Assembly: GCA_038046685.1 (NCBI GenBank)
Contig: JBBSVT010000074.1
Coordinates: forward strand, 389-64,388
DNA: 64,000 nt
Direction: 5' to 3'
From: Nanobdellota archaeon
Lineage (GTDB): Archaea > Nanobdellota > Nanobdellia > Woesearchaeales > GW2011-AR4
Positions 7,123 to 62,312 of this stretch are shown one piece after another (position 1 is the stretch's first letter; each line of letters begins with the position of its first letter). Position numbers and translations under genes: made by a program. Below the pieces are notes generated by a model that had not been told where the DNA came from, did not search any database, and saw only the letters and a program-made list of their open reading frames with translations.

Positions 7123-7194
7123 GGGCCCATGGTCTAGTGGCTAGGACACAACCTTCACAGGGTTGGGGCAGGAGTTCAATTCTTCTTGGGCCCA
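7123..7194 (+). tRNA. tRNA-Val (anticodon CAC), CCA not encoded
   Basis: Manual cloverleaf: acceptor GGGCCCA/TGGGCCC, D-stem GTCT/GGAC, anticodon stem CAACC/GGTTG with loop TTCACAG, T-stem AGGAG/CTTCT with loop TTCAATT, discriminator A; 72 nt. Confidence 0.75.
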
Positions 7195-18586: not shown

Positions 18587-19357
18587 ATGAACCTATCTAT
18601 ATACCAAAAAGAAGTTTTTGAAAAATACCATAGCAATTCACAAATAGCTAGAGTTCTTACAGAAAGTTGGTTCAAAGAAGAGATGTACTGTCCAGCTTGT
18701 TTACACGAAGAATTGATAAAAAATCCTAATAATACGAAAGTTATAGATTTTTTATGTAGTAATTGTGACAATTCTTTTCAATTAAAGAGCCAATCCTCAT
18801 CATTTCACTCTAGAGTTTTGGATGGAGCATTCAATCCAATGATTGAAACAATAATAGAAAGGACAAATCCGAACTTCTTTTTTATGCACTATTCAAATGA
18901 AGATTGGGAAATAAATAATTTATTACTCATTCCAAAATTCTTTTTTTCAGAATCCATTATAGAAAAACGAAAACCCCTTTCTGAATCAGCAAGGCGTTCT
19001 GGATGGATTGGATGCAATATATTGCTATCAAAACTGCCTATTTCTGGAAAAATTGGTATAATAGAAGATAAAAAGATAATGCCAAAAAATCAAGTTCAAA
19101 GAAATTGGGAAAAATTATATTTCTTAAATAATCAAAAACCAGAAAAAAGGGCATGGACTGCTGATGTATTGTACTGCATTGAAAAGTTAAATAAGAAAGG
19201 ATTTACTCTAAATGATATTTACAATTGTGAAGGTTATCTATCCAAGCTTCATCCAAATAATCAACACATACAAGCAAAAATTCGACAACAATTACAAATT
19301 TTGAGAGATAAAGGAATTCTTGAGTTCAAAAATAAAGGGAATTACACAATAAAATAA
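18587..19357 (+). CDS. DpnI-like (Dam-replacing/DRP family) methyl-directed type IIM restriction endonuclease
   Basis: Blocks recalled from S. pneumoniae DpnI: YCPxC...DFxCxxC, NPNFFF, ARRSGWIGCNI, KIRQQLQILRDKGILEF at the C-terminal winged helix. Confidence 0.75.
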   Translation: MNLSIYQKEVFEKYHSNSQIARVLTESWFKEEMYCPACLHEELIKNPNNTKVIDFLCSNCDNSFQLKSQSSSFHSRVLDGAFNPMIETIIERTNPNFFFMHYSNEDWEINNLLLIPKFFFSESIIEKRKPLSESARRSGWIGCNILLSKLPISGKIGIIEDKKIMPKNQVQRNWEKLYFLNNQKPEKRAWTADVLYCIEKLNKKGFTLNDIYNCEGYLSKLHPNNQHIQAKIRQQLQILRDKGILEFKNKGNYTIK

Positions 19358-20139
19358 TTGTTGGAGATTCTTTAGAAGAATTAAAAAAGATTCTTTCTGA
19401 ATCAGTAGATCTAGTATTTGCTGATCCGCCATATAACATGTCTAAGAAAAAAGGGTTGGGATGGAAATACAGCAACCACATAACTATGCAAGAAGAATGG
19501 GATATATTCTCTAAAGATGATTATCTTCAATTTAATCAAAAATGGATAAAAGAATGTTTAAGAACTTTAAAGCACGGTGGCAGTTTATGGATATGTGGTT
19601 CTTTTCACAATATTTACCAAGTTGGATTTATCTTACAACACATAGAAGATGTAAAAATCAACAATAGTATAGTATGGTTTAAGCCAAATGCTCAGCCAAA
19701 CATAACTTGCAGAATGTTTACAGAAAGCACAGAACATTTAATCTGGGCATCTAAAAATGGGAATGGGCAGAAATGGAAATTCAATTATGAAGAAACCAAA
19801 AAATTAATTCAAGATCCTCTAAATCCTGAAGGTAAACAAACTAGAAATGTTTGGTGGATTCCATTAACCCCAAGAAAGGAAAAATGGGCAGGATCCCATC
19901 CAACTCAGAAACCTTTAGAGTTACTCAGAAGAGTGATCTTATCCTGCACCAATGAAGGAGATACTGTTTTAGATCCATTTTTAGGTTCTGGGACTACTTC
20001 TGTGGCATCAAAAATGCTTGGAAGAAATTCCATCGGTATTGAGAAGGACAAAAGATATTATGATATTATAAAAAAAAGGTTAAATGAGCCGCAAAAGAAA
20101 ATAGAAGAATATGTCGAAGTTGGTCATTTAAATGGCTAA
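19354..20139 (+). CDS. beta-class N6-adenine/N4-cytosine DNA methyltransferase (motif IV DPPY N-terminal, motif I FxGxG C-terminal); non-ATG start inferred
   Basis: Frame open from 19336: KIIVGDSLEELKKILSESVDLVFADPPYN precedes the first ATG (19438); C-terminal VLDPFLGSGTTSVASKMLGR. Only ATA/ATT candidates lie upstream of DPPY. Confidence 0.75.
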   Translation: MIVGDSLEELKKILSESVDLVFADPPYNMSKKKGLGWKYSNHITMQEEWDIFSKDDYLQFNQKWIKECLRTLKHGGSLWICGSFHNIYQVGFILQHIEDVKINNSIVWFKPNAQPNITCRMFTESTEHLIWASKNGNGQKWKFNYEETKKLIQDPLNPEGKQTRNVWWIPLTPRKEKWAGSHPTQKPLELLRRVILSCTNEGDTVLDPFLGSGTTSVASKMLGRNSIGIEKDKRYYDIIKKRLNEPQKKIEEYVEVGHLNG

Positions 20140-21100
20140 TGAGATCGTTAGAGAAATACCTGTAAACCTGTTTGAGATTAATCCTGAAAATCCAAGACTA
20201 ATTTTTGACCAGGAAAAACTCGATAGACTTCTAGAGTCAGTTAAAGAACGAGGAATTCTTGTTCCGTTAAATGTATTTATCAATGATAATAAAAAGTATA
20301 CAATAATAGACGGAGAAAGAAGGTATAAAGTAGCATTGCAACTTGGTTTGACAAAATTACCAGTTATAATAAATGAAAGGCCACGATCTGAAGATTATGT
20401 ACAAGATATGTTCCATATACACAACTTACGTGAACCATGGGAATTAGTTCCAACGGCCATTAAACTCAATCAGGTTATAGAAAATTTTTCAAAAAAACAA
20501 GGACACAAACCTACGGAAAGAGAATTAAACAAATTAACTGGGTTAACTATATCGGAGATTAGACGATGTCGTCTTATTCTTACATTTCCTGAAAAAATCC
20601 AAGACCTAATGTTACAAGATGAAGCTAAAACTAGCAAAGAAAAAAGCATTATTGGAAAGGATAAACTTCTAACAGAAGATTTTTTTATAGAAATGGCTAA
20701 AAATATAATTTCCCCTTTAGAAAAAAATAATCCAAGAGCCTTTAAAGAAATTGGAGGGAGTAAAAAGATATTTGAAGCGGTTATAGAAAAAAGAAAAAGT
20801 GGGCTAATAAAAAACATCGTATCATTGAGACCCTTATCAAAGTGTATAAGAGATCGTCCAATAAAAGGTGGTCAAGCCATTAGAAGTTTTGTTCAAAATC
20901 AAAATTTATCCTCTGAAGATTTGATATCCAAGGTGGGATTGGTATTCGATTTATATAAATTTGAAAGGAATATGAATGTTTTTTATGGTGCCCTCGATAA
21001 TATTCCAAAAGATTTAGTTGCAAAAGATAAAGAGAATATAGTTAAAATTTTAAGAAAAATGAAAAATTCTATCGAACAAAAATTGAAAGAGTTAAGGTAA
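20132..21100 (+). CDS. ParB-like nuclease (ParB/Srx) domain protein
   Basis: ILVPLNVF...YTIIDGERRYKVALQLG (GERR box); ATG overlaps the MTase stop, implying translational coupling. Confidence 0.7.
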   Translation: MANEIVREIPVNLFEINPENPRLIFDQEKLDRLLESVKERGILVPLNVFINDNKKYTIIDGERRYKVALQLGLTKLPVIINERPRSEDYVQDMFHIHNLREPWELVPTAIKLNQVIENFSKKQGHKPTERELNKLTGLTISEIRRCRLILTFPEKIQDLMLQDEAKTSKEKSIIGKDKLLTEDFFIEMAKNIISPLEKNNPRAFKEIGGSKKIFEAVIEKRKSGLIKNIVSLRPLSKCIRDRPIKGGQAIRSFVQNQNLSSEDLISKVGLVFDLYKFERNMNVFYGALDNIPKDLVAKDKENIVKILRKMKNSIEQKLKELR

Positions 21101-21104
21101 TGGT

Positions 21105-21932
21105 ATGGCACTTCTCAAACCAAACGAGCTAGATAGTAAGATTCGTAATAAGCTATTCTCATTCTTAAAGAAAAAATACAAAGTTTATGTACATAAAAAT
21201 TATAGTGTTTATAATAATTTTGCCCCAGATTACTATTTAAAACAAAAAAATGGTAAGAAAACAATTGTTATATATAGAAATCCTCCAGAATTTCCAAATG
21301 TTCAGAGCGAGGATATTAGGACAGCTTTAAAAGAAGGTATAAGTGTTTATATTGCTATATTCAATCATGATTATAATCCATTATTAGACGAGTTAATAAA
21401 TAAGTGCGATACTATTTATGGTGCAGGGGTACTACAAATATCAAATTCTTTCGATTGTGTAGTTCTACAACCTGCTCTTCTTGATGTACCAAAATCAGAT
21501 AATATTATTGAAAATAGAATAAAGATTTTTATAAGTTCAAAGTTATGGATTCCCGAGAGAGATATAACTAGAAATGTTTTAAAAAAAGTTAAATATCAGC
21601 CAATATGTGTAGAAAGGATTCCTGGAGAAAAAACAATTCAAGAAAATTGTTTCAAATGGATAGAAAAAAGTCAATTTTTTATAGCGATCGTAACACGTCA
21701 ATATAGGCAGATGGTAGATAAAGAAATAAAACATGCACTTAAAAAGAAAAAAAAAGAAAAATGCTTATTCTATATTAAAAATGATTGTTTTCAAGAGAAA
21801 AAACTAAAACTTAAAAATTTAATTAAATTTATTCAGAAAGAAGCAACTTTTCACAAATTTGTTAATGAAACCGAGCTTAGAAAAATGCAACCAAAGCAAA
21901 TTGCTGAATTGATTGGTAAAAATACAAAATAA
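21105..21932 (+). CDS. hypothetical protein, C-terminal half weakly TIR-like
   Basis: KIFISS...GEKTIQENCFKWIEKSQFFIAIVTRQY resembles TIR betaA and the alphaC/betaD pattern; no further support. Confidence 0.35.
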   Translation: MALLKPNELDSKIRNKLFSFLKKKYKVYVHKNYSVYNNFAPDYYLKQKNGKKTIVIYRNPPEFPNVQSEDIRTALKEGISVYIAIFNHDYNPLLDELINKCDTIYGAGVLQISNSFDCVVLQPALLDVPKSDNIIENRIKIFISSKLWIPERDITRNVLKKVKYQPICVERIPGEKTIQENCFKWIEKSQFFIAIVTRQYRQMVDKEIKHALKKKKKEKCLFYIKNDCFQEKKLKLKNLIKFIQKEATFHKFVNETELRKMQPKQIAELIGKNTK

Positions 21933-31238: not shown

Positions 31239-32030
31239 TTATTCTGTTGTTTTGCTTAATCTAAAAATCATGTACGAGCCTAAAAGGAAAAGTGGAATGC
31301 TCAGAAGCTGCCCCATTGTGAAATAATGAAATATTAATCCAATCTGCTCATCCGGTTGCCTGAAGAACTCTACCATAGTCCTAAACAATCCATACAAGGC
31401 TACAAAACTCCAGAACATAAAGCCCCTAGGCAATTTCTTGTCCTTGATAAGCCACAAGGCAGCAAAAACTGCAAGATTCTTAATGGATTCATAAATCTGG
31501 GAAGGATGTCTGCAGCCACTGGGCAAATTTTGCACAAATTGATTTTTTGAGTAGTCTATGCACCAGCTTAAATCAGTTACTCTTCCATAAAGCTCAGCAT
31601 TCATGAAATTGCCGAGCCTTCCCAGAGCCAATGCCAGAGCGACAGGAACAACTGCTATGTCTGCCAAATCATAAAATTCTATTTTCTTTCTCCTGCAAAA
31701 CAAAAAACCAGAGGCTATTGCGCCTATCAAACCCCCATGAAAGCTTAAGCCGCCATGCCAGACTGCAAATATTTCCAGAGGATTTTGAAGATAATAGAGC
31801 GGGTTGTAAAAAATAACATAAATAAGTCTTGCGCCCAAAACAATTCCAAAAATCTCATAAACCAATAAATCTGAAGCATCATCTTTTGTTATGCCTAATC
31901 CCTTTCTTTTTGCAAGATAAGCAATTAAAAAATAGGCGATTATGAAACCGAAAGCATAAAATAAGCCATAGTACCTAATTTGAAAAGGGCCGAGTTCAAG
32001 CAATACCGGATTTAGATTGTGATAAAACAT
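31239..32030 (-). CDS. lgt: prolipoprotein diacylglyceryl transferase (bacterial type)
   Basis: GGLSFHGGLIG, GRLGNFMNAELYG, HPSQIYES, EFFRQPD match the Lgt signature; length and TM pattern fit. Confidence 0.85.
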   Translation of the reverse strand: MFYHNLNPVLLELGPFQIRYYGLFYAFGFIIAYFLIAYLAKRKGLGITKDDASDLLVYEIFGIVLGARLIYVIFYNPLYYLQNPLEIFAVWHGGLSFHGGLIGAIASGFLFCRRKKIEFYDLADIAVVPVALALALGRLGNFMNAELYGRVTDLSWCIDYSKNQFVQNLPSGCRHPSQIYESIKNLAVFAALWLIKDKKLPRGFMFWSFVALYGLFRTMVEFFRQPDEQIGLIFHYFTMGQLLSIPLFLLGSYMIFRLSKTTE

Positions 32031-32046
32031 TTTATTGATTAATAGG

Positions 32047-32880
32047 CTAATGAATCTTTTGCATATCCTCTCTTATCAATTCATAAAATGAAATCCTGTT
32101 GATTAAGATTATCCAATATAAGACGAAATCAAAAGCAATAATAGCTATTTGTTTGAAATAAGCATAGGCAATTAGATAATTGCCATAATTTTTGGAAGTA
32201 GCCATTCGTAATAAATACCCGCTGCCAAAGAATAAAAGCAGCAAGAGCAAAGCCGACAAAATCATTACAAGAATTGTTTCTCTGTATAACCTTATTCCTG
32301 TAAATGCCAGCTTAAAACTATCCTTGACGGATTGTTTTATTGAAGCCCCTTCATAAAATAGCGAATGTGATGCGTTAGTAATGATATAAAGAAGCAATAA
32401 GTATGGAATTGCCAAAAAAATAAAAGTGTATGGGGCATATTCCTGCTTTATGCTTTCCAATATAAAGCTAGCCATCAGCAATATTCCAAGGAATATGCCA
32501 CCTATTATGATGTTTAATATATAAAACTGCCCAAGCCGTCTAAATGTAAATTCTGTTTTATGGAATAGTGATTTTATAAAATCCAGCAGGCAATATTTAA
32601 AGAAAGAGTAGGAAAATAGGATTAGCAAATAATAAGCCAAGACAAATATAAGCATTATAATGACCCAAGCCCGCGTACTTGGCTGCCCAGGAATTGTCCC
32701 TAAATAACTTCCTAAAGTCTTGAAACCAAAAAGAGAAAGGATAAACATTGCATCAAACAAAATCATCAAGCCAGTTTTACCGGGGTTTGATTTTGCAAGC
32801 TTAAGGCTTTTAATGAACAACCATTCTTTATTTGGATCCGCTTTGTGAACTATATTTTTTGGCTTCATCCGGGAAAACAA
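32047..32880 (-). CDS. polytopic membrane protein
   Basis: 277-aa hydrophobic ORF. Confidence 0.45.
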   Translation of the reverse strand: MFSRMKPKNIVHKADPNKEWLFIKSLKLAKSNPGKTGLMILFDAMFILSLFGFKTLGSYLGTIPGQPSTRAWVIIMLIFVLAYYLLILFSYSFFKYCLLDFIKSLFHKTEFTFRRLGQFYILNIIIGGIFLGILLMASFILESIKQEYAPYTFIFLAIPYLLLLYIITNASHSLFYEGASIKQSVKDSFKLAFTGIRLYRETILVMILSALLLLLLFFGSGYLLRMATSKNYGNYLIAYAYFKQIAIIAFDFVLYWIILINRISFYELIREDMQKIH

Positions 32881-32902
32881 AGCAGAGTAGTATATAAAGG
32901 TT

Positions 32903-33595
32903 TTATTTTTTGTATTTTGTGGTTTTTATTAGCTGGTCTTTTTTCTTGAGCTCTGCCATTCGTTTTTCTGCAATTTTAAGCAATTCTTTTGTCACTTTTT
33001 TAGGAATATCAATCCTGTAATTTTCCATTAATTCAGTAAAAAAATCGTAAAGTAGTAGTGGAAAAGCTGCGATACCAATCTTAATTTGCATAGAAGTTTC
33101 ATTTAAGATAATGCCCCAATTGACATTAAATTTTTTAATTAGTTCAGCAGCATCATCCCTGTCTTTTTCTCTTTCAGTGCATGATTTCATCATCAAAATA
33201 TCTTCGGGACTTGCTGTTTTTACCAAGAAATTTCCAAATTCGTGGATTTCTTTTATTCTTTTAAGAGTTTCTAAATGGATTTTAAACCCTATAACTTCGT
33301 TCAAAAAAAGATCAAACCTCGTATCCATTCCGTCCATAATAGTTGGCTTGACTTCCGCATCTTCCCTGAATATATTTCTTATATTCCTTCTTTCATCGAA
33401 TCCTGCATTAACAAGAACTTTTTTAACATCCTCTAAATCTTCTTTTTTTAAAAAAACCAAGTCAACATCTTTTGTTGTTATTTTAGCTCCGTAAAACATC
33501 ATTGCAGAGCCACCTATTGCCACACATTCCACTTTATTTTTTAACTGGCTGCCAATTATCTTAAAAAGTCCTATTTGTTCTTCAAGGTTTATCAT
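32903..33595 (-). CDS. AbiEii-like nucleotidyltransferase (putative type IV TA/Abi toxin)
   Basis: VAIGGSAMMFYGAKITTKDVDLVF NTase motif; 4-nt overlap with the upstream HTH gene. Confidence 0.5.
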   Translation of the reverse strand: MINLEEQIGLFKIIGSQLKNKVECVAIGGSAMMFYGAKITTKDVDLVFLKKEDLEDVKKVLVNAGFDERRNIRNIFREDAEVKPTIMDGMDTRFDLFLNEVIGFKIHLETLKRIKEIHEFGNFLVKTASPEDILMMKSCTEREKDRDDAAELIKKFNVNWGIILNETSMQIKIGIAAFPLLLYDFFTELMENYRIDIPKKVTKELLKIAEKRMAELKKKDQLIKTTKYKK

Positions 33596-38791: not shown

Positions 38792-39034
38792 ATGGATATG
38801 ATAAAGAAAATATCCAAAGGGTACCGCATAACGATTCCCGCAGAAATAAGGAAGCAATTTGATTTAACCATAGGCACACCCATAGATATAGAAGTTAAAA
38901 AAGAAGAAATAATAATAAAACCATTTAATGCCAAAAAAGAAATGGAGAGGCTTTTCGAAGAAGCAGATAAACTGCCTATGCATAATTTGAGTCCAGAAGA
39001 TTTAGAAAAAATGGAAGAGGAAATATATGAATAA
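38792..39034 (+). CDS. AbrB/SpoVT-domain protein (orphan antitoxin-like)
   Basis: KGYRITIPAEIRKQFDLTIGTPIDIEV. Confidence 0.6.
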   Translation: MDMIKKISKGYRITIPAEIRKQFDLTIGTPIDIEVKKEEIIIKPFNAKKEMERLFEEADKLPMHNLSPEDLEKMEEEIYE

Positions 39035-39212: not shown

Positions 39213-41000
39213 TTAACTTCTTGGCTTGAAGGGATTTCTCGGCAAGTCGTGTCCCCAGTATTTTGTACCACTAAATTTACCTCCCTCAGTTACAAGCCCT
39301 ATATTAGGTCCGATATCATAGCCGCCTATGGCATCACCTATCGCCTCCAACACTTCCATAACTCCTGCTTTATTTGGGTCGCCGGTGCCGCCCCAATACT
39401 TGGTTTCTTCAATAACACGGTGCAAAATGTATAACGCCGCTCCTCTGGTAGTTATTGTTGGCTTTTCAGACTGATGGCTTAATATATTCTCCTGCAAGTC
39501 GTAATAGTACTTTCTACCAATATGCTTATCTTTGTCTTCTGCTCTCGGGTCAAAAGCAGGATTAAGATGGCTTGGCCTTATTGTCATTTCAACATATTCC
39601 GGATCTGAAGGTGGCCTTAAAGATGTCTCTGTTGTTTTCCCGGAAAGCTTATTTAATATCATCCTAACCTTAGCGTGTCTTCCGTGGTCAATATCTCTTT
39701 TTGTCTGTGGATGCACATTGTACTTCTCAGCCAAAGATTTTGGTTTTCTTGGGTCAATAGATTTTAATTCAGTCATTATTCTTTCCATTACTGTAATTGC
39801 ATTCTTGTGATACCTTCCGTCTCTCAAATCATCCCTGTACGCATCATAACTGACATAAACCCAATATGCTATATCTAACAAATCACAATCTTCTATGAAA
39901 TGTGAAGGTACTGTTCGTACTTCACTTCGAGGGCGTCCTTCATAAATGTCAATGAGCACTTTTCCTTTTTCCAATGGTTTTCCCTCAAACAGAGTTTCAC
40001 CATCACCAACTTCAAGAGGATATCCATTCTTGTCAAGCCCAGGCGCAACTTCTTCAGGTCTTTTAAAGTTTGCAGGAAGTGTGTTAATGTTATCATTTGT
40101 TGGATTTTCAGCATCATCCAAGAGACGCCCATCACTGTCCAAAGGCTTGATGACTTTGTAGGTGTGTGCATAATGCACCTTTTGATATCCCAATCGTTTT
40201 TTCATCACATTCTGTCTTAGCTTTCTTAGTTCTGCATGCCTGCCTAATACGCCGCCTTCACCCTTGCTTCCTCCAAGTGCCTTTCTATGCTCTTCTTCAA
40301 AATTCACCATCTTTTGTTGCAAATACTTTTTCAAGTCCATTATTTTGCTGTGGATAATTTTTATGTTATCCCCAACACGTTGATTATTAGGCAACGCTGC
40401 CTTAACGTCTGCACATATCTTTTCAATATCCCTATCTAATTGATTCCAGTATTCACTATTCCGGGCCCCAAAGTAAGCAACTTGGTATCTTAAATTTTTA
40501 TGGACTATCCACTTTTCAGGGGGAAGATTAAATCTCACATTAATGATTCCACCCCCACTTGCTGTTAAGTCAATAGGAAGTTCAACGGGAGGTTGTTCTG
40601 TAGGGCTAGAGAAAGTTCCAGAATCGGACAATTTATACTCCTGTAATAGCGATTTTTCATTAATAAAAGGCCCTATGCTTGAGCCTATTTCATGCTTGTC
40701 AGACACAAATTCAGAATATAATTCTCTAAGTCTATTTCTATAAAATTGCGCACTCGGTTCTTGTCCTTTACCCTCAAGGCCGTCCCAACTCAGTTCCGCT
40801 TCCACCATCTCCTTATTCAATTTTTGTATTGTGTCAAATTCTATCTCCTTCTTCAATTTTTGGTAAATGCCAATATTTTTAATATCTTCTTCAGGACCAA
40901 AATGTACCGGAAAACCTATAAACCTTAAACCTCTCCAAAGGTTGGTTCTCCAATTAAGAAATCTTCTGGGTAAAGGTTTTTGCTCAGCCATAGCGCTCAC
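39213..41000 (-). CDS. large uncharacterised protein (operon gene 5)
   Basis: 595-aa ORF, no recognisable motif; 17-nt overlap with the upstream gene. Confidence 0.5.
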   Translation of the reverse strand: MSAMAEQKPLPRRFLNWRTNLWRGLRFIGFPVHFGPEEDIKNIGIYQKLKKEIEFDTIQKLNKEMVEAELSWDGLEGKGQEPSAQFYRNRLRELYSEFVSDKHEIGSSIGPFINEKSLLQEYKLSDSGTFSSPTEQPPVELPIDLTASGGGIINVRFNLPPEKWIVHKNLRYQVAYFGARNSEYWNQLDRDIEKICADVKAALPNNQRVGDNIKIIHSKIMDLKKYLQQKMVNFEEEHRKALGGSKGEGGVLGRHAELRKLRQNVMKKRLGYQKVHYAHTYKVIKPLDSDGRLLDDAENPTNDNINTLPANFKRPEEVAPGLDKNGYPLEVGDGETLFEGKPLEKGKVLIDIYEGRPRSEVRTVPSHFIEDCDLLDIAYWVYVSYDAYRDDLRDGRYHKNAITVMERIMTELKSIDPRKPKSLAEKYNVHPQTKRDIDHGRHAKVRMILNKLSGKTTETSLRPPSDPEYVEMTIRPSHLNPAFDPRAEDKDKHIGRKYYYDLQENILSHQSEKPTITTRGAALYILHRVIEETKYWGGTGDPNKAGVMEVLEAIGDAIGGYDIGPNIGLVTEGGKFSGTKYWGHDLPRNPFKPRS

Positions 41001-42732
41001 TCATAAATTTGCTGGTTCTTTCGGTTACATACCCAACATCTTCTAAAAGTATTCTTTGTTTAGACCAATTCACTAAAGTTAGATAGGCATTAATCATTCT
41101 TTGAACTCCTTTCCTTATTAGCGTTAAATCATAGTTGCTCAAAGCATTATCCTTTTGCTTGATTTGTTCTATAAAGTCGCCGAATTGATTGTGGAACTCA
41201 CCAAGCCGAGCAAAATCAAAGTCTAGCATAAGCAGATATGAAAACTTTGCTGGGTCTAAAATGTTTACAGCTTCCAATACTTTCTCTTTGTGCTCTGAAA
41301 ATTTCACAATGCTTCCTCCTTGAGTAGCCAATTGTTCAGCTTCAGCTTCTATATCAAACATCTCTTCCAATTTTTCAAAATGCTCAGCAATGTCCATATA
41401 CATCACGTCAACCCTGTCATAAGTATATATAAATCTTTTTTTTCTGTTTTTCCAGAGCCTATCGACGTCTCTTTTGAGCGCGTCAATGCCCTTTTGGACT
41501 GCTGATACTAGATTGATTTCACCGCTTTCAGCCATAATTGCCCGGTTAATTTGCAGGATAAGCCTTGCAATTGCATCTCTTAATAGTCCACTTCTCTTTT
41601 CAAATACGGCAGCGAGATATTTTCCTGCATCACCAATCACAGCATTCTTTCTTCTCATTAACTCCTCTAAGCGGCCTCTCCATCCGTTTAATATGGTTAT
41701 CCACTTAAGTGGTTGCTGTCCTATTCTTTCTTTATTTTTCAGTAAGTAGCTTGCAAAGGGATTATCAGCATATTCTGTTCTGAAAGTGGCAGCATACTCC
41801 TCTATATGTTTACAAAATTCCTCAGTAGCCTCAGCCCTCATCCATTTAGACTTGCCAAATTTGTCAGTTTGTATATCCCTCTGCAGCATTGAAATCAATC
41901 GTGAGATAAATCCTATTTGCTCAGCAACCTTGTGTGTGAATCGAGCTACGTAATAAAGCATTTGAACCTCTCTGCTGCCAAACACGGCTTTTCTTAAGAT
42001 CTGGTCTTTGTTGAATGTATCAAGTCCCTTGAGCAGTTTCCCATCTGGTGTTTTTACATCTTCTTCAAAATAAGAACGCGTTCTGTCAGTGAAAAAAAGA
42101 ACATCAAAATGCACATGCTGGCTCCAATCATTGACATCTCTTAAGGCATAATTTAAAGACTCAATTTCACCCATATACCTTTTTATTAAAGTTAGCCTAT
42201 TGCGAATGTTCGCTTTTAATTTCTCATCTTCCAACAATTCAACAATATGCAACAGCGAAGCAATATCTTTCTCCAATTTTCCTAAGTCATTAATATCACC
42301 AGAAATTTTTTGAAGCACGCCAATTCCCCTCTCTCTTGCCAACCCGTGTTTTCTTATTAACTGCATCAGCTCTTTGTCTATCAATCGCGCAAATTCTGGG
42401 TTATTTGTCTTGAATTCTTCCAGTCTTCGCTCCAGAATCTCATCTAAAGCCCCTAAACTTAATGTTCCGCTTCTAACTTGTGCCATCAACTTTTGTAAGT
42501 GGAAAATGAACATGTAATCAAATGCCTTTTTCTCCAATTCTTCTTTATTGCCAATAATAGAATTTGCATTATCCACAACAAGCCTTAGATTTTCAATTGT
42601 GTTCAGCGCTTCTTCCAAAAATCTTGAAACTTCATTGTCAAATAATCTTTGAGGCGTATCAATTCCAGGTTTGTCTAAGTCAGTTCTTGTCATTAGGTTA
42701 TCTGAAGTTGGATTATTTGGCAACTGTTTCAC
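40984..42732 (-). CDS. large uncharacterised alpha-helical protein (operon gene 4)
   Basis: 582-aa ORF; 20-nt overlap upstream. Confidence 0.5.
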   Translation of the reverse strand: MKQLPNNPTSDNLMTRTDLDKPGIDTPQRLFDNEVSRFLEEALNTIENLRLVVDNANSIIGNKEELEKKAFDYMFIFHLQKLMAQVRSGTLSLGALDEILERRLEEFKTNNPEFARLIDKELMQLIRKHGLARERGIGVLQKISGDINDLGKLEKDIASLLHIVELLEDEKLKANIRNRLTLIKRYMGEIESLNYALRDVNDWSQHVHFDVLFFTDRTRSYFEEDVKTPDGKLLKGLDTFNKDQILRKAVFGSREVQMLYYVARFTHKVAEQIGFISRLISMLQRDIQTDKFGKSKWMRAEATEEFCKHIEEYAATFRTEYADNPFASYLLKNKERIGQQPLKWITILNGWRGRLEELMRRKNAVIGDAGKYLAAVFEKRSGLLRDAIARLILQINRAIMAESGEINLVSAVQKGIDALKRDVDRLWKNRKKRFIYTYDRVDVMYMDIAEHFEKLEEMFDIEAEAEQLATQGGSIVKFSEHKEKVLEAVNILDPAKFSYLLMLDFDFARLGEFHNQFGDFIEQIKQKDNALSNYDLTLIRKGVQRMINAYLTLVNWSKQRILLEDVGYVTERTSKFMSERYG

Positions 42733-44374
42733 CTGCTGTTTGCTCTAAAAATTCCGATTGCATCCTAAAATAATCATTTAAATATTTTCTTATTTGCTCA
42801 GCTTCCTTTGAATGCTGTTTGGCAACCGTGCTAATGAAGTTCCACAATCCTTCCAACGATACTGTTGGATAAGGATTTGCAGGGTTAAATCTTGGACTGT
42901 CTACACTCTCATCATAATAATGTTTTCTGCCCCAATATACAAATTTATCAGGCTGTTTTAACGCTTCTCTATCAAATGCAGTTTGATTTTCCTTCAATAA
43001 GCTGCTAAAGCGTGCATTTTCAAAATCGAGCCTACCTTTTTTTTCCATTATAGCCGCATAGTCCTCTGTTGTTCTACTATACGGGTGATAGACTCCTTTT
43101 TGCATATCCTGAACATTGAAATCCCAGTCACTTTCAGAAAAAGTAAGTATTTGGGAAAATTTACCTCTGGTATCTAAATGGAAAAGTGTAAGATCTTCTT
43201 TTTTAAATCTCCTTACCCTAAATTTGCCATTTACCTCAGGGTTTTTTCTTTCAGTCTGAATGGCATTAATATCACTTACAGCATAACCAAATAAATTCAC
43301 TTCTACAAGACATTCTGCTGTGCCTTCTTCATACTCAGCAGGACTTCCATTTTTAATAGCCCTTGCAGTTTCCCATTTTATATCCCTTGTTACCTTATTG
43401 TCATCTGTTTCAACTTCGTATATCTTAGGAATAGCTCCTTTTTTTGCAAAGCCATAGCCTCTAACGTATTGACCATACATATTATACATATCTTGGAAAT
43501 AAAGTCTGGTAGCTTTGATATAATTTAATACCTTAATTCTTGATATGGTTGCCTTATATCGGTCATAAGCATCATCGAGTTGTGTTACGTTAACATCAAC
43601 AATTGAACCCATTTTGTTTTCCACATATTTGTCTGATTTTATAATTTCGGGTGTTTCACCAGCTAAATTCAACTCCAATATTTCCTTTAGCTCTTTCATG
43701 AGCTTGTAAATAACTATGTCCTTTCTTGCAATTCCCCAAGTATTTGCATGTTTTTTTGTTGTTTCATTCTTTCCAAGTACCCAGTCAACTATTCTTCCAT
43801 TGCTCACTACAGGCTCTACTTTGCCACCCTCCACATCCCTTATCATGCTCTTGCGTAGTTCTTCCTCATCTAATTCAACAGATTGCATTGGTCCTTCTTT
43901 CTTCAAAACTTTTTCTATAGTGTCTGCAAATGCCAAACGCTTTGTCTTGTATATTTCATGCCTCAATAAGTAATTCATCAAAACATAGAGTTCAATCCTA
44001 AGCTCTTTCAGCAGAGGGTGCAGTTCATCAGGTGGGCCTCTTAGCCTGTAACCAAGCCAATTGGAAAGCAATGACCCAATCACCCTCTGTTTCTTAAGCC
44101 GCTTTAGTATCTTAAATCCAACTCTTATTCTCCCTTCCCTTATCCATCTAGCTCTTTTTTCACCATTTGCCCACGCCATAAATATAAAGAAGAGTATCAT
44201 TAAAACAGCTAATGCACCCAAAGAAATTTTTAGATTTCCATATGTAAGTTTTGGATAGAAATAGCTATTACCAAAAATCAAGTACCAAACATAATCTGCT
44301 ATACCTGCGAATATAAAGGCCACTACCCATCTCACAAGCCACGACATATTGCGCATAAAGTCTATGACTGTCAT
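42713..44374 (-). CDS. membrane-anchored uncharacterised protein (operon gene 3)
   Basis: Two N-terminal TM helices then a ~480-aa soluble domain; ATGA overlap upstream. Confidence 0.5.
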   Translation of the reverse strand: MTVIDFMRNMSWLVRWVVAFIFAGIADYVWYLIFGNSYFYPKLTYGNLKISLGALAVLMILFFIFMAWANGEKRARWIREGRIRVGFKILKRLKKQRVIGSLLSNWLGYRLRGPPDELHPLLKELRIELYVLMNYLLRHEIYKTKRLAFADTIEKVLKKEGPMQSVELDEEELRKSMIRDVEGGKVEPVVSNGRIVDWVLGKNETTKKHANTWGIARKDIVIYKLMKELKEILELNLAGETPEIIKSDKYVENKMGSIVDVNVTQLDDAYDRYKATISRIKVLNYIKATRLYFQDMYNMYGQYVRGYGFAKKGAIPKIYEVETDDNKVTRDIKWETARAIKNGSPAEYEEGTAECLVEVNLFGYAVSDINAIQTERKNPEVNGKFRVRRFKKEDLTLFHLDTRGKFSQILTFSESDWDFNVQDMQKGVYHPYSRTTEDYAAIMEKKGRLDFENARFSSLLKENQTAFDREALKQPDKFVYWGRKHYYDESVDSPRFNPANPYPTVSLEGLWNFISTVAKQHSKEAEQIRKYLNDYFRMQSEFLEQTAGETVAK

Positions 44375-45357
44375 TTAGGTGTACCTCCTGTTGTGCCTGT
44401 AGTTCCGCCAGGTGATCCTTTCCACCACCTACTGAATGCTTTCCAGCCGATTGTTCCAAAAATAAATGAAACTATAAGCGAACCATATTGGCGCCAATCA
44501 TCTCCCCTCCATGGATAAGGGAAAGCATTTTGCCAAAACCAAGTTATGACTCCTCTTCCTGGAAATACAATGTAGGATATCCACAAAACAAGTCCTACGG
44601 CAACAAAGTAGTTGTACCATTTGCCTCCAAGCTGCTTTCCTAAAACTATAATTGAAAGGAGTTCTCCCAACTTGATTATTGTATCAGTTGTGGTGCCACT
44701 TTTGGCAATATCAGCAGCAATGATTAGCGCCATTGCATACGAAAGCTTGTTGTACCCTTCTCCCATCTTGAGGAAACCAACAAAGAACCACGATAGTAAT
44801 ACTGCAGAACCTATAAAAACGTACAACCTGTTGTCTTCTGGACTTAAGATGCCTTTTTCGCCTAAAAGGTAATTATAAAATTGTTGCAAAGTTTGTGTAT
44901 TCCATACATAACTTTCCAGCCTTAATGAAATTATTGCAGCAATAAAAGTTATCAACAATAATGCCCCAACCTTTCCCTGTTTTGATTCAAGAGGTACTCC
45001 AAGCAATCCCAAACTGAAATAAACAACTCCCGAAATTAATATTGTGTTGACTATGACGACTGGGTTAAACATACCAGCAAAAGCTCCGACTTCCCAAATA
45101 AAGCCGCTAGAGCCAATAAATACCCACGCTATAATAAACGATAATCCAAAAGTTGCAATCCACAATATTGCTTTTTCTTTGTCTGACTTTTCCGGCATTA
45201 GTATGTATTGCAGCAAAAATAAAATAACCCATATTATTGCCGTATTTATTGCTAAAACAACCCATGGATTTCTTGGCGACACTTCCTGAGCAAAAACTGA
45301 GGGAATTCCAATTACCAAGATTAATGCGCTAATCCAAAGCATTTTGCCTATTTTCAT
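44371..45357 (-). CDS. polytopic membrane protein with Gly/Thr-rich C-terminal tail (operon gene 2)
   Basis: About eight hydrophobic helices; ...WKGSPGGTTGTTGGTPK; ATGA overlap with the ATPase gene. Confidence 0.5.
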   Translation of the reverse strand: MKIGKMLWISALILVIGIPSVFAQEVSPRNPWVVLAINTAIIWVILFLLQYILMPEKSDKEKAILWIATFGLSFIIAWVFIGSSGFIWEVGAFAGMFNPVVIVNTILISGVVYFSLGLLGVPLESKQGKVGALLLITFIAAIISLRLESYVWNTQTLQQFYNYLLGEKGILSPEDNRLYVFIGSAVLLSWFFVGFLKMGEGYNKLSYAMALIIAADIAKSGTTTDTIIKLGELLSIIVLGKQLGGKWYNYFVAVGLVLWISYIVFPGRGVITWFWQNAFPYPWRGDDWRQYGSLIVSFIFGTIGWKAFSRWWKGSPGGTTGTTGGTPK

Positions 45358-46499
45358 AATTCTTTTGCTACCTCTTCCAAAATTTTATCGTCAGGAGCAT
45401 CATCAAACTCATAACCATGAGAAGTTAACTTAACCCAAAGGCGGAGCACATTGTCAGCAAAGTAGAACATGTTGTTTTTCTTGTAAATGATGTCAACTTC
45501 CATCAATCTTTCAATAATGCTTTTTGCCACAGGAGCACTTCTGTAAATTTTCCTTGCAATATCGCTCAGGCGAAGCTCTTCGTTTGCGATAACTTTCAAA
45601 ATCGATTTAAGCAGTGTTTGTCCTCTTGCCCTGCTGTAATAGTAATTCAAAGACTCTTTGCAGTAATTGTGAAGTGAACTGTTTTTTTGAAGAAGCTCAA
45701 TCAAGAATGCCTTTTTAGCTTCCTTAATTTCATTGCATTTCTTAGAAATTAATGAAGCAACAAATGGATGGCCATTGCTTAATGCAAAGATTTCTTCGCC
45801 TAAATTTATATCTCTTTTGCCGACAATGCTTTCCACAAGCTCAATTGTTTCATTCTTGTCAAGATTTTTTATTTCATAGCACTCAAATTTTCTTAATATG
45901 GACAAAGACTCCTTGATAGCGGAGCTTGTTGCTATGTAGCTTATGCTTTCGGAATCAAAATCAATAAGTGAGATAATGTCCCTAATTTGAGAGAAATTGT
46001 TTAAGTCAAGCAGATTTTCAAAATTGTCAAGCGCAATCAGGAATTTTTTGCTGTTTTCCTTTCCTAGGATTCCAGCAAAATCAAAGGCGCTCTGAGCAAG
46101 AAGCTTTTGGTCGGGCTTTATTTTAAGCAATTCATTGTGAACTGATTTTATCACAGAAAAAGCGTTTTTGCTTTTTAGCTCCTGCTCACATTCCAGCAAA
46201 TTTTCAATCAATAAAAACTTTTTATATTCATATAGCGGCTTTCTTAAGAAATGAAATATAATATTGCCGATAAACTCGATTGAGAAATTTTCAGGATTAA
46301 GGCTTATTTTTTCCAAATCAATGTAAACTGGAACAAGATCCTTGACATGCTTAAGATGCACCTTGACAATTGATGTTTTGCCTGATTTTCTGGAGCCGAG
46401 CAATGCAATGTTCTTCTTGATTCCGTTCCGGAAGGAATTTGTATTTTCATCTAATAGCTTTAAGTAATAGCTTCTTCCGATAACCGAATCATCTGTCAA
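45354..46499 (-). CDS. Arch_ATPase-family (AAA+-like) ATPase with C-terminal wHTH/DUF234-like region (operon gene 1)
   Basis: Walker A IALLGSRKSGKTSIV, Walker B LIALDNFE, and architecture typical of the PF01637 family. Confidence 0.7.
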   Translation of the reverse strand: MTDDSVIGRSYYLKLLDENTNSFRNGIKKNIALLGSRKSGKTSIVKVHLKHVKDLVPVYIDLEKISLNPENFSIEFIGNIIFHFLRKPLYEYKKFLLIENLLECEQELKSKNAFSVIKSVHNELLKIKPDQKLLAQSAFDFAGILGKENSKKFLIALDNFENLLDLNNFSQIRDIISLIDFDSESISYIATSSAIKESLSILRKFECYEIKNLDKNETIELVESIVGKRDINLGEEIFALSNGHPFVASLISKKCNEIKEAKKAFLIELLQKNSSLHNYCKESLNYYYSRARGQTLLKSILKVIANEELRLSDIARKIYRSAPVAKSIIERLMEVDIIYKKNNMFYFADNVLRLWVKLTSHGYEFDDAPDDKILEEVAKEL

Positions 46500-51762: not shown

Positions 51763-52120
51763 TGAAAGAAGAAGTAAAGAGATGGTGAGCAAAAGCAAAA
51801 GACGACTTAGATAAAGCTGTAATCTTATTCAATAATGGGAAAATGATGGTACTGCATTTTTTTGTCAACAATCTGTTGAGAAGGGGTTAAAAGCATTAGC
51901 TCTTAAAGAAAAGAGTTTTATAAACAAAATTCATGACCTTGTTGAATTAGGAAAAGATGTCAACTTGCCACAACATTTGATTGTTTACTGCAGTGAATTA
52001 ACTTTATCCTATATCTATTCAAGGTACCCTGACGTTGAGGATAAAGACATAAAATCTGTGTCAGATAATTTCTTAAAATATACCAAAGAAATACTAAAAT
52101 GGATAGAAAAGAAGCTATAG
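51763..52120 (+). pseudogene. HEPN-domain toxin paralog with in-frame TGA at codon 9 and a homopolymer frameshift
   Basis: MKEEVKRW-TGA-AKAKDDL...; after a T8 run the reading continues in another frame (FCQQSVEKGLKALALKEKSF...KEILKWIEKKL*) matching the intact paralog at 57769..58161. Confidence 0.6.
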
Positions 52121-52416
52121 CTAAGCTGAAAAGTTTTAAAAAATTGGTAAGTAAGGATTTAACAATTAGTGATATGTATTTTTTTGGTTCCATAGCAACT
52201 GGTAAACCGCATAAATACAGTGATATAGATTTAGTCATAGTGAGTCCTAAATTTAGAGAGTTAAATTTTTTTAAAAGAGGCGCACTTATGTATAATTATT
52301 GGAATTTAAGATACCCAGTTGACTTCCTTTGCTACACTCCAGAAGAATTTAACAAATTGAAGAAACAAATAACAATTGTAAAGGAAGCTGTTGAGAATGG
52401 AATAGAAATTCGATAG
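52099..52416 (+). CDS. minimal nucleotidyltransferase (MNT antitoxin), paralog of 58137..58454
   Basis: MYFFGSIATGKPHKYSDIDLVIV; C-terminus identical to its paralog (YPVDFLCYTPEEF...IVKEAVENGIEI). Confidence 0.7.
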   Translation: MDRKEAIAKLKSFKKLVSKDLTISDMYFFGSIATGKPHKYSDIDLVIVSPKFRELNFFKRGALMYNYWNLRYPVDFLCYTPEEFNKLKKQITIVKEAVENGIEIR

Positions 52417-52452: not shown

Positions 52453-55074
52453 ATGAAAAGAGGTAAATTAGCTTATTTTCTTGGGTTTTTGTTAGTAATG
52501 GGTATGTCTTTGGTGGTGAGTGGGGTTGGGTATGCTCAACCAGCCTGTGAGCAAGTGGCTGGACAAATCCGAGATTCTGACTCCGATGGTGCGTGTGATC
52601 GCACTACTGATGGGGGCACACCTGATAAATGTATTGCGGCTGCTGGTTCTCCTGATTTTGGAAGCCATAATGTTGATTCAAACGGATGCACGTGCAGACA
52701 AAAAGTTTCATCAGCTTGCTCGTCAACATATTCAGGGGCTGCATGTTGCTCTGCCAATCAATGCTGTGGTAGATTCGGTGCAGCTAGTTATTCATGTTTG
52801 GATGATTGTGTGGGTAATGTTGCTTCAACAGGCGCCGGTGCTCCAAGTGGCACTGGTTCTTCTACTGGCACAACTGCAACTGGCTGCAGCCCAGGCTCTG
52901 GTCCAACATCACAAGATCCAGTTTTAAGAATAAATGCAAATAGATACACACCGGTCGACAGAGGGCGTTTAATAGCCGAACAGGACATAGCAATAGGTGG
53001 TGGTCCGTCTGGAACTCCAATATACAGCAATAATGCTAATAGCCCTGTTGAGTTGCCAGCTGGAACAAATCCTGTTTTGATTGTTAGAAGATTAAGGATT
53101 GCGCCTGAAAATGGAGCTGCACAGCCAATAAGGATTTATCTCAGCAAGAAACCGTGTCAGGCAGGTGGATATTGGTATGATGTTATATGGGGAACTGTTA
53201 TAGGTAATATAAGGTTTGGTGAAGAAGATTTTAGATTTAATCTTGGCTCATCATTAGAACAAGGAGTTATACATTCTGTTTATGTTGTGATTGGCAACGA
53301 AGGCAGCAATGACTTGTCATCATCAACAGAGCTTTTCTTTAGAGTTGGACCTGCGAATACCGTAATTGTAAGTCCGCCCTCAGGCTCTTCTCCAACCCCG
53401 ACAACTTGCACTCCAAGAATAGAAGCTTTTGATTATAATTTTGTAGTTGGCAAAGTAGGAAGACTTAAGGTAATATCCAATAAACGAGGAAAGATAATAA
53501 TCTTAGCAAAAGGAGTGTCATCCCCTTCTAATGATTATAGAATAATGAAAGAATGCGGTTCAATTAACGATCCAAAGACTGAATGTGAATATAAATTTTT
53601 AGAGGATTCTAGTCATCAAGATGGACAAGTAATAACATCTATGTGGAGTGGATCTTTAATTAATTATTACGCTGAGTTGCAAACACCTTCTGGTGAATGT
53701 GTTCAATCCACACCAGAACGAGCATGCAGATGGCCAGATGTCAATGCTAAGATTATGCAGATAAAACAAGCAGGTGCGTTAGGTTACTGCACTGATGAAA
53801 CTCATATTTATAATGGAGGAGCTGATCCTTTAGGAAGTCTTTGTACCTCAAGTCCACCTAACACATGTAATCCTGGTTATTGTGGCAGAGATAGTGGTAA
53901 TCCAGTATGTATTTACCCAACAAATTGTGTAAGCAATCCTGATAATTCAATGAAAGCATTAAGGACATTTTTGCCATTGTGTGATAGTGTGACGGGAACG
54001 GCTGGACCTAGTGCTCCTGGTGGAACTGGTGCATGGGATTTGTGCGCAACTCTCACAGGAGGTATTCCAACAGCCATGCAGCCATTGCAAGGACCGTATA
54101 CACCAGCCTCAAGTTTGAATATGCCATTGCGTCCATATCTGAGAATTAATGGGCTTCCTGGCAGTGGTGATGCTAATAGCGAAAGCAGTCCTATAGTTAT
54201 CACAAAAGGCGAGCAAGTTACTGTAACTGTTGCAAGCTATAATGGCAATTTACCTGTTAATCTACCAATTAGAATATATATAGAGCAGAAGTCACAGGAT
54301 GGGAGTTGGAGTGTAATAAGTCCAGGTAGTTTAGGATACACTCAACCAGGATGCTGGTATTCCAATACTATTCCAGGTTCTGCTACGGCTGGTTGGCCCG
54401 CTGGCACATATAGAACATATTTGGTTGTTGGCGAAGATGTAAATCAACGCTCTTCTTCATCTTATGTGTATTTTAAGATTCAAACTCCTCCAGGAACTTC
54501 GGCATGTACACCTGTTCTTGGAGGCAACCAATATGCTGTGGATTTAAGCAGGTCAAAATATACAGGATGCAATGTCCAAGCAATTCAAGATTTATCTAAC
54601 ACTATTACATGCGATCAATTAGCACCGACATGGTCTCATAATAATCCAACTGGTACCATGACGTTTTGGTGGCCAATAATTCCAGGCGCTACCTCATATA
54701 ACATAAGGCTTGAGGAATTTGACGCCACAACAAATACAGCTACAGGAGCAAGAATAAGGGATTCTGGAACTGCTCCTCCAATTGCAAGTAACTGTGGTGG
54801 TGATCCTCATTATTATTGTGTTAATGGTATTACTGCTGCTACACCAGGAATAATAGTAATTGGTGGACAGCTAAGCATTGATAATATTAGACTTGACAGA
54901 AATAAAAAATATGCTTTTTGGGTTGACCCTGTAAGTGTCCCAGGATGCGGCACTAATTATGTTCAGGGAAGTGTGACTTTTAGAACTACAAACCTTGTCG
55001 TTCCTCGACCTATTAATCCAAGCACTGCCACATCAACATGCCCAGCTGCAAGCATTTCAGCTGAATTAACATAA
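52453..55074 (+). CDS. giant secreted Cys/Gly/Thr-rich surface protein carrying a novel ~100-aa repeat module
   Basis: Signal peptide MKRGKLAYFLGFLLVMGMSLVVSGVGYA; Cys-rich N-terminal region; C-terminal module TSYNIRLEEFD...DPHYYCVNG...NKKYAFWVDPVSVPGC. Confidence 0.6.
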   Translation: MKRGKLAYFLGFLLVMGMSLVVSGVGYAQPACEQVAGQIRDSDSDGACDRTTDGGTPDKCIAAAGSPDFGSHNVDSNGCTCRQKVSSACSSTYSGAACCSANQCCGRFGAASYSCLDDCVGNVASTGAGAPSGTGSSTGTTATGCSPGSGPTSQDPVLRINANRYTPVDRGRLIAEQDIAIGGGPSGTPIYSNNANSPVELPAGTNPVLIVRRLRIAPENGAAQPIRIYLSKKPCQAGGYWYDVIWGTVIGNIRFGEEDFRFNLGSSLEQGVIHSVYVVIGNEGSNDLSSSTELFFRVGPANTVIVSPPSGSSPTPTTCTPRIEAFDYNFVVGKVGRLKVISNKRGKIIILAKGVSSPSNDYRIMKECGSINDPKTECEYKFLEDSSHQDGQVITSMWSGSLINYYAELQTPSGECVQSTPERACRWPDVNAKIMQIKQAGALGYCTDETHIYNGGADPLGSLCTSSPPNTCNPGYCGRDSGNPVCIYPTNCVSNPDNSMKALRTFLPLCDSVTGTAGPSAPGGTGAWDLCATLTGGIPTAMQPLQGPYTPASSLNMPLRPYLRINGLPGSGDANSESSPIVITKGEQVTVTVASYNGNLPVNLPIRIYIEQKSQDGSWSVISPGSLGYTQPGCWYSNTIPGSATAGWPAGTYRTYLVVGEDVNQRSSSSYVYFKIQTPPGTSACTPVLGGNQYAVDLSRSKYTGCNVQAIQDLSNTITCDQLAPTWSHNNPTGTMTFWWPIIPGATSYNIRLEEFDATTNTATGARIRDSGTAPPIASNCGGDPHYYCVNGITAATPGIIVIGGQLSIDNIRLDRNKKYAFWVDPVSVPGCGTNYVQGSVTFRTTNLVVPRPINPSTATSTCPAASISAELT

Positions 55075-55116
55075 ATCATAAAACACATTATTAAATTACA
55101 ACTAAAAAACATTAAA

Positions 55117-57567: not shown

Positions 57568-57650
57568 GTGTAAGGTGCTATGAAGAATCAGTTGTGATTT
57601 TGTGATGGGAACTAACAAAAGCACAAATTAAAAAAATTCAACAATTTTTT

Positions 57651-57720
57651 AAAAAATCAATATCAAAATAAAATTATGTGTTAAAACAGAAAAATAAATC
57701 AAAAAATCAATGGAAAAATT
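57651..57720. repeat. second locus of AAAAAATCAAT(A/G)TCAAAATAAA-type intergenic repeats
   Basis: See the 56607-56680 repeat; also shares ACAGAAAAATAAA with that spacer. Confidence 0.55.

Positions 57721-61722: not shown

Positions 61723-62312
<590 letters not shown>

Follow-up and report, generated by a model that had tools for sequence, protein, structure and literature searches.

Do any archaea lipidate exported proteins with the bacterial enzyme prolipoprotein diacylglyceryl transferase (Lgt)? The question is raised by a 64,000-nucleotide stretch of contig JBBSVT010000074.1, assigned to a Nanobdellota archaeon, which carries a bacterial-type lgt gene on its reverse strand (31239..32030). 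The whole stretch is called the window below. Two recent specialist papers (2025–2026) describe archaea as lacking homologs of both Lgt and Lsp, an absence that motivated the discovery of AliA and AliB, and the AliA/AliB paper reports that no archaeal Lgt or Lsp homologs were found (PMC12462473). The first-pass annotation of the window had stated the same view, that Lgt homologs are regarded as absent from archaea. Here, we find a conserved Lgt in Woesearchaeota genomes. Sequence comparisons indicate that the window probably encodes a functional Lgt enzyme of a Woesearchaeal archaeon, presumably acquired long ago by an ancestor of the lineage and arranged in an operon behind a membrane protein gene that we call F1.

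Sequence and fold of the Lgt protein

The lgt gene is complete. Its open reading frame (ORF) starts with ATG and runs for 263 codons, giving a full-length phosphatidylglycerol--prolipoprotein diacylglyceryl transferase of 263 amino acids. The protein matches the Pfam family LGT (PF01790) with an E value of 1.7e-79 and 267 bits (cutoff 24.9), covering profile positions 1 to 239 of 240, and scores 225.8 bits against the NCBIfam equivalog TIGR00544 (cutoff 118.9). Its sole sequence match in the PDB is E. coli Lgt (5AZB/5AZC; E 4.3e-51), to which it aligns in two blocks with a shorter “head” region between them. The four Lgt motifs that the first-pass annotation had read from the translation are all there: GGLSFHGGLIG (residues 93–103), GRLGNFMNAELYG (137–149), HPSQIYES (175–182), and EFFRQPD (221–227). 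The signature motif, G142-RLGNFINGELWG-154 in E. coli numbering, corresponds to G137-RLGNFMNAELYG-149 in the window protein, and the HGGL motif moves from H103 in E. coli to H98. Both motifs vary little or not at all among 29 close homologs and 76 archaeal Lgts. By every sequence and fold criterion that we applied, the window protein belongs to the Lgt family.

The residues on which the reaction depends are conserved. Their roles in E. coli Lgt come from structure and mutagenesis: Y26, H103, R143, and E151 are essential by one or the other, while N146, Y235, R239, E243, and R246 form a conserved polar network and G154 belongs to the signature motif (PMC4728403). We mapped them through an alignment of 217 Lgt sequences that included an E. 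coli Lgt sequence whose N- and C-terminal blocks are consistent with the 5AZB alignment. E. coli Y26, H103, D129, R143, N146, and E151 correspond to Y21, H98, D124, R138, N141, and E146 of the window protein, and G154, Y235, R239, E243, and R246 to G149, Y213, R217, E221, and R224. All 11 of these essential or catalytic residues are kept in the window Lgt, and each is kept in 71 to 76 of the 76 archaeal homologs. Further residues of the cavity and arm 2 are also retained (G27, Y80, G99, S101, F102, G142, and N149 in E. coli numbering). The gene is under strong purifying selection, with a ratio of nonsynonymous to synonymous substitution rates (dN/dS) of 0.04 to 0.10 in pairwise comparisons with relatives that are 79 to 82% identical, at saturated dS.

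An AlphaFold2 model of the window Lgt reaches a moderate predicted local distance difference test score (pLDDT) of 70.9, and its head and L6-7 regions are of low confidence. When the model was searched against the PDB by fold, 5AZB was again the sole match (E 3.6e-10, probability 1.00, TM scores 0.72/0.67). The model thus points to the seven-transmembrane Lgt fold, with periplasmic head and arm subdomains. The head itself is variable in length, with 26 residues in the window clade; E. coli has a longer head of 42 residues, and the remaining archaeal Lgts a shorter one of 19. Residues 150 to 175 of the window Lgt (nucleotides about 31506–31583) contain a 7-residue insertion relative to the heads of other archaeal Lgts. 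Two cysteines, C157 and C173, are invariant in the head of the window clade and could form an extracellular disulfide.

An F1-lgt operon with an archaeal promoter

The lgt gene is predicted to come second in a bicistronic unit that has little or no leader and is driven by a canonical archaeal promoter, with a transcription factor B recognition element (BRE) and a TATA box. The first gene, F1 (32047..32868, reverse strand), encodes a lineage-specific polytopic membrane protein of 273 amino acids. Just 16 nucleotides (32031..32046, reverse strand), with no obvious Shine-Dalgarno sequence, separate the stop codon of F1 from the lgt ATG, an arrangement that suggests co-transcription. The BRE/TATA promoter ATAAAACC-TTTATATA lies at 32891..32905 on the reverse strand. 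Its TATA box starts 30 nucleotides before the F1 ATG, so the F1-lgt mRNA would be leaderless or nearly so.

This architecture is conserved among relatives. Of 44 related F1-lgt pairs, 32 have a “aaAACaTTTAtATAct” box about 30 nucleotides (mostly −28 to −33) ahead of the F1 start codon (ATG), and the F1 stop and lgt start in related loci are mostly 1 nucleotide apart or overlapping. Of the 71 archaeal lgt genes with upstream sequence, 43 have F1 as their immediate upstream neighbor in the same orientation, and three more have it elsewhere in the locus; F1 homologs occur across loci L006–L078. Next to bacterial lgt, F1 was not found at the two Desulfarculaceae lgt loci that we examined. The conserved pairing, together with the BRE/TATA box, indicates that lgt is fully integrated into archaeal transcription.

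F1 is a protein of about six transmembrane helices and an N-terminal amphipathic helix. It has 149 detectable homologs, and all named ones are a “hypothetical protein” from Woesearchaeota or Nanoarchaeota. Sequence searches with F1 returned neither a Pfam family nor a PDB match. Its AlphaFold2 model is all-helical (pLDDT 83.5) and has no match among PDB folds, the best Foldseek hit having an E value of 1.1; a profile comparison with hhalign found no relation to Lgt. From the helices of the model and the positive-inside rule, both termini of F1 are predicted to be cytoplasmic. The best-conserved motifs (YSFFKYxxLDFIKSLF, NxSHSLFYEGxSIK, YRET, and ILINRISFY) would also lie on the cytoplasmic side, opposite to the active site of Lgt, which faces outward (PMC4728403). 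F1 may belong to the lipoprotein pathway as a new component, or serve as a partner that handles lipids.

In two marine Woesearchaeota, a gene for a DsbA/thioredoxin-like protein and one for a CxxC-containing protein of 448 amino acids precede F1-lgt (L071:6864-9218 and L066:6851-9224). Together with F1-lgt, these genes may make up a cluster for envelope-protein maturation.

Proposed mechanism and lipid donor

By homology with E. coli Lgt, the window protein would span the cytoplasmic membrane seven times, with a central cavity open to the outer leaflet. A glycerol-headgroup phospholipid would bind in the cavity near R138 and R217 (E. coli R143 and R239), and the lipobox peptide of an exported pre-protein would bind at the HGGL motif. 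On the outward-facing side of the membrane, the glyceryl-diradyl moiety of the lipid would then pass to the thiol of Cys+1, the invariant cysteine of the lipobox, forming a thioether. LspA, which is seen in relatives, would subsequently remove the signal peptide.

Some Woesearchaeota have bacterial-type GpsA/GlpK (PMC6431249). The lipid donor would be either archaetidylglycerol, an ether lipid with an sn-glycerol-1-phosphate (G1P) backbone, or bacterial-type phosphatidylglycerol scavenged from a host. Bacterial phosphatidylglycerol and archaeal archaetidylglycerol have opposite glycerol stereochemistry, and their chains are ester- and ether-linked, respectively. The general view is that DPANN archaea take up lipids from their hosts. 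The Lgt sequence does not discriminate between the candidate donors: in the Lgt alignment, we found no substitutions specific to the archaeal clade at lipid-contact residues, which we had sought as a sign of ether-lipid use.

A stronger version of the F1-lgt association would make F1 an obligatory partner, so that F1 and Lgt form a two-component lipidation module adapted to an archaeal or host-scavenged membrane. Here, F1 may, for example, deliver the glycerol-headgroup lipid donor to the outer leaflet or flip it there. We regard this reading as unlikely. If it were true, Lgt would use mirror-image G1P ether lipids, crossing the “lipid divide”, or these DPANN cells would contain bacterial-type sn-glycerol-3-phosphate (G3P) phospholipids from bacterial hosts.

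LspA and lipobox proteins in Woesearchaeota

If Woesearchaeal Lgt acts in lipoprotein maturation, its partner peptidase and its substrates would be expected in the same lineage. We searched the window and the related loci for lspA with a profile of the LspA proteins of E. coli, B. subtilis, and S. aureus, and confirmed matches with Pfam. LspA is encoded on the F1-lgt contigs L066 (15024-15503) and L071 (14010-14471), 4 to 5 kb downstream of lgt (E about 1e-33), and the L071 protein matches Peptidase_A8 (PF01252) with an E value of 3.9e-36. Woesearchaeal LspA is 28 to 41% identical to the E. coli, B. subtilis, and S. aureus proteins. With archaeal LspA as query, all named matches in the 120 closest clusters are “signal peptidase II [Candidatus Woesearchaeota archaeon]”, and LspA is widespread in Woesearchaeota MAGs (metagenome-assembled genomes). 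The lspA neighborhood begins with an EndoIII-like gene and two small ORFs. Mostly, lspA is then followed by an unannotated membrane protein gene on the opposite strand (177–217 amino acids) and by aIF-1A (L066, L071, and L086–L108). Proteasome, aCPSF1 (KH and beta-CASP domains), RpoH/RpoB, or ribosomal protein S8e genes are nearby. This context is unmistakably archaeal, and the gene is vertically inherited.

Candidate substrates are also present. We scanned naive ORFs with rules that required lysine or arginine in the n-region, an uncharged hydrophobic h-region, and the lipobox [LVI][ASTVI][GAS]C. Over about 1.1 Mb of Woesearchaeal loci, the scan identified 26 textbook lipoprotein signal peptides, such as MKKSAIIIILGMSLLLVAGCSSQ and MKKILLAILAVLVLIISACAQQ; the close clade of the window accounts for 10. 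Cysteine follows the lipobox triad in 5.2% of cases at positions 15 to 35 versus 1.3% elsewhere (odds ratio 4.2, Fisher P 4e-9). On the strength of LspA and the lipobox signal peptides in the lineage, Woesearchaeota appear to run the bacterial Lgt/Lsp pathway.

Several observations weigh against an active, lineage-wide Lgt. A search of the window by hidden Markov model (HMM) and tblastn found no lspA, nor was lspA found in the extra 3 to 4 kb of a 68,103-bp replicate contig. Five LspA clusters, checked for members from the sample or MAG of the window, all came from other samples. The rule-based scan found no lipobox protein in the 64-kb window. Archaeal lipids have the opposite glycerol stereochemistry, and their use by a bacterial-type Lgt is hypothetical. 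The deep and internal branches of the Lgt tree described below are short and most of its bacterial representatives unnamed, so strict monophyly is tentative and no donor is named. At the density seen in relatives, about 1.5 lipobox proteins would be expected in 64 kb, so a count of zero in the window is unremarkable. The bacterial-style lipoprotein maturation proposed in the first-pass annotation finds its support in the lineage, where LspA and lipobox proteins occur; neither was found on the contig of the window.

A different explanation is that the Lgt homolog has been re-purposed, acting on a non-lipobox acceptor or in lipid remodeling or scavenging with F1, while AliA/AliB-type enzymes carry out lipidation. 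According to PMC12462473, DPANN archaea have AliA (arCOG02177) “with some gaps”. Re-purposing would also fit the tight coupling of lgt to F1, unlike the two bacterial lgt loci examined, the distinct 26-residue head with its two invariant cysteines in the window clade, and the lipobox and lspA searches that came back empty for the window’s contig. However, all residues of the canonical reaction are kept, including the peptide-binding HGGL motif, and the lineage is significantly enriched in lipobox signal peptides of the canonical form. LspA is also retained, sharing a contig with lgt in both L066 and L071, and Lgt-modified prolipoproteins are, to our knowledge, its only substrates. We consider re-purposing distinctly improbable.

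The host genome is archaeal

Is the functional Lgt that we propose truly encoded by an archaeon? We judged the taxonomy of the host from record titles, gene content, and promoters. The identical protein in NCBI is titled [quoted passage not shown], and more than 100 protein clusters are 71 to 82% identical to the window Lgt, many named “Candidatus Woesearchaeota archaeon”. The contig itself, of 67,553 bp, derives from groundwater at Hainich (well H14, 0.2 μm filter). The exact protein is encoded there, on the 68,103-bp replicate, and on several shorter contigs that were assembled independently and have the same neighbors. The locus occurs in at least five independent assemblies.

In a scan of one genome per GTDB species, 500 relatives were confirmed and the best 80 examined by title. 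Archaeal titles were found for 78 of these best 80, mostly Woesearchaeota or Nanoarchaeota; the titles seen were Woesearchaeota, Nanoarchaeota, Nanoarchaeia, “uncultured archaeon”, and “uncultured Methanosarcinales archaeon”. Lgt identity to the window falls from 82 to 48% over the best 80 species genomes, and the first bacteria to appear are Desulfarculaceae (47–49%).

About 30 of the GTDB species genomes with an Lgt 48 to 82% identical to that of the window are titled “uncultured Methanosarcinales archaeon” (binchicken TPA assemblies). They include L006-L008, L015, L017-L019, L022-L024, and L028. Many of them share the Woesearchaeal F1-lgt synteny, often as F8-F9-F1-lgt, and the title is probably a placeholder or mislabel.

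Gene content in the window and on related contigs also points to an archaeon. A helicase of 649 amino acids is nearest to archaeal XPD (Thermoplasma Ta0057, 184 bits, versus 52 bits for bacterial DinG). The phosphoenolpyruvate carboxylase named in the first-pass annotation is confirmed as PepcA (PF14010, E 2.3e-180) and as archaeal-type (TIGR02751 PEPCase_arch, 580 bits), and the Ogg2-type glycosylase likewise (PF22175, E 2.8e-44). The TRASH domain that it listed corresponds to the YHS/TRASH-type N-terminus of a Cu-ATPase, and its tRNA with a CNN anticodon is the one tRNA-Val(CAC) at 7123-7194. Its “Arch_ATPase”, by contrast, was not recovered: the gene at 45354-46499 has only weak AAA matches, below cutoffs. 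On the related contig L066, lgt is accompanied by aIF-1A (TIGR00523, 114 bits, cutoff 102.9) and by A/V-type ATPase subunit I; contig L071, which also carries lgt, encodes an eIF-1a-domain homolog of the L066 aIF-1A. No rRNA or ribosomal-protein genes were found in the 64-kb window.

Promoters tell the same story. The TATA boxes reported in the first-pass annotation are supported as a class: TTTAWA starts between −42 and −24 in 16 of the 42 window genes with at least 40 nucleotides of upstream spacer, where 4 to 11% would be expected. Shine-Dalgarno–like motifs are rare (11 of 71 genes). Sites resembling sigma-70 promoters, which the first-pass annotation took as a possible sign of a bacterium, number 58 in the window, against 58.9 ± 7.1 in shuffled sequences. 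The GC fraction around lgt is 0.353, the same as the window average.

The first-pass annotation had offered two alternatives. The first, a DPANN-type archaeon with a bacterial-type lgt, is borne out by the titles, the archaeal XPD and phosphoenolpyruvate carboxylase, and the BRE/TATA promoters. The second, a bacterium with an archaeal-like gene set, is rejected. The host genome is that of a Woesearchaeal archaeon (DPANN; Nanoarchaeota in GTDB).

The contig, or its lgt segment, might still be mis-binned or chimeric bacterial DNA, for example from the Candidate Phyla Radiation (CPR), which would make archaeal Lgt a contamination artifact. Woesearchaeota and CPR bacteria share 0.1 to 0.2 μm groundwater filtrates, Peregrinibacteria are among the nearest non-archaeal Lgt clusters (45% identity), and the window holds no rRNA or ribosomal-protein gene. 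Against this, lgt lies mid-contig without a GC anomaly, flanked by genes common to Woesearchaeal contigs, in an arrangement assembled independently at least five times. The BRE/TATA element at −30 is kept in 32 of 44 relatives, and the window has archaeal XPD and phosphoenolpyruvate carboxylase. The related lgt contigs carry aIF-1A with A/V-ATPase subunit I (L066) or the eIF-1a-domain homolog (L071), orthologs occur in 78 archaeal-titled species-level MAGs from many studies, and L081 comes from a 681-kb Woesearchaeota contig with lgt (CAWIGF010000003.1). Contamination is largely refuted, and we give it very little credence.

Distribution and evolution of archaeal Lgt

The origin of lgt in the Woesearchaeal host was traced with a quick neighbor-joining tree of 217 sequences, in which most bacterial representatives are unlabeled. 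A single clade takes in about 73 of the 76 archaeal Lgts, together with one unnamed representative. The three outside it, L074, L084, and a second copy from L036, group with unnamed sequences, which hints at additional independent transfers. The second L036 copy is a paralog within 15 kb of the first in a Hainich Nanoarchaeota MAG. The named non-archaeal neighbors of archaeal Lgt are Desulfarculaceae (47–49% identity) and the CPR group Peregrinibacteria (45%). Naming a bacterial donor was attempted and dropped: most representatives of the 50% clusters are unnamed, and the deep branches of the tree are very short.

The spread of identities, an operon and promoter kept among relatives, and purifying selection argue for an old acquisition followed by mainly vertical descent. 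We infer that an ancestor of the lineage took lgt from bacteria long ago, that the gene has since been mainly inherited vertically, and that a few extra transfers are likely. The horizontal acquisition suggested in the first-pass annotation is thus supported insofar as a bacterial-type gene resides in an archaeon; it is not specific to one organism, but old and lineage-wide. A recent, sporadic, functionally neutral acquisition in one organism is scarcely credible: although DPANN genomes contain many cross-domain transfers (PMC8407392) and L074, L084, and the second L036 copy fall outside the main archaeal clade, this scenario is contradicted by the distribution and dN/dS of lgt, with orthologs 48 to 82% identical over 78 species genomes, a conserved operon and promoter, strong purifying selection, and native composition.

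Comparison with known systems

Woesearchaeal Lgt resembles the bacterial enzyme closely. The window protein aligns with E. coli Lgt (5AZB/5AZC) over its full length except the head, at 35% identity in the structural alignment, and the two share the GRLGNFxNxELxG signature, HGGL, and the essential Y/H/D/R/N/E/G/Y/R/E/R set. Unlike E. coli lgt, the window gene is encoded by an archaeon, has a BRE/TATA promoter, and stands second in an operon, behind the gene for a membrane protein specific to the lineage. Its product also differs in the head, with 26 rather than 42 residues and two invariant cysteines, and the membrane lipids are presumably archaeal or scavenged. Woesearchaeal LspA is likewise a clear homolog of bacterial LspA (PF01252), from which it differs in that its gene is set among archaeal housekeeping genes.

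AliA and AliB of Haloferax volcanii (arCOG02177/02178) are the only experimentally described components of archaeal lipoprotein lipidation (PMC12462473). Their presumed job, lipidating the lipobox cysteine of exported archaeal proteins, is the one presumed for Woesearchaeal Lgt as well. In both cases, polytopic membrane proteins with two key arginines are involved.

No paper in the literature searched by full text connects Lgt or signal peptidase II to Woesearchaeota or DPANN archaea. Annotation pipelines in GenBank already name both Woesearchaeal proteins correctly. Novelty therefore lies not in the gene call but in recognizing that a widespread archaeal lineage has the bacterial pathway, and in the F1-lgt operon. 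Lgt is conserved and under selection in at least about 76 Woesearchaeota genomes at the species level, alongside LspA and canonical lipobox proteins in the lineage, which alters the known phyletic distribution of lipoprotein biogenesis, and a genuine Woesearchaeal LspA contradicts published claims that archaea have no Lsp homologs. The lineage also offers a natural test case, either of a bacterial-type Lgt working on ether lipids of opposite stereochemistry or of bacterial-type lipids in host-dependent archaea. Furthermore, it flags F1 as a candidate new component of the pathway.

Other features of the window

A low-GC island (0.29 versus about 0.35) extends over 18587-21932 on the forward strand. 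It encodes a DpnI-like methyl-directed endonuclease (PF06044, E 1.6e-67), an N6/N4 DNA methylase, a ParB_N protein, and a DUF4062/TIR-like protein, and is probably an acquired defense island. At the other extreme, the highest GC of the window (up to 0.42) is reached at 54 to 56 kb, within a forward-strand region (52453-56547) that encodes two large secreted proteins of 873 and 476 amino acids. Both are rich in cysteine, proline, glycine, and threonine and have no Pfam match. By eye, they seem to share a repeated internal module, …SYNxRLxD…YxFWVDP…GC, and they may be surface or adhesion proteins.

A block of five genes on the reverse strand (39213-46499) is poorly conserved in related loci, and none of its products reaches the threshold for a Pfam family. 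It encodes an AAA-like protein of 381 amino acids, a membrane protein of 328, and proteins of 553, 582, and 595 amino acids, with overlapping stop and start codons. Toxin-antitoxin–like pairs are dense in the window, at 5573-6069, 38792-39034, 52099-52416, 56751-58454, and 61723-62294, and comprise HEPN/nucleotidyltransferase, DUF433/DUF5615, DUF3368/UPF0175, and MazE/AbrB-type systems.

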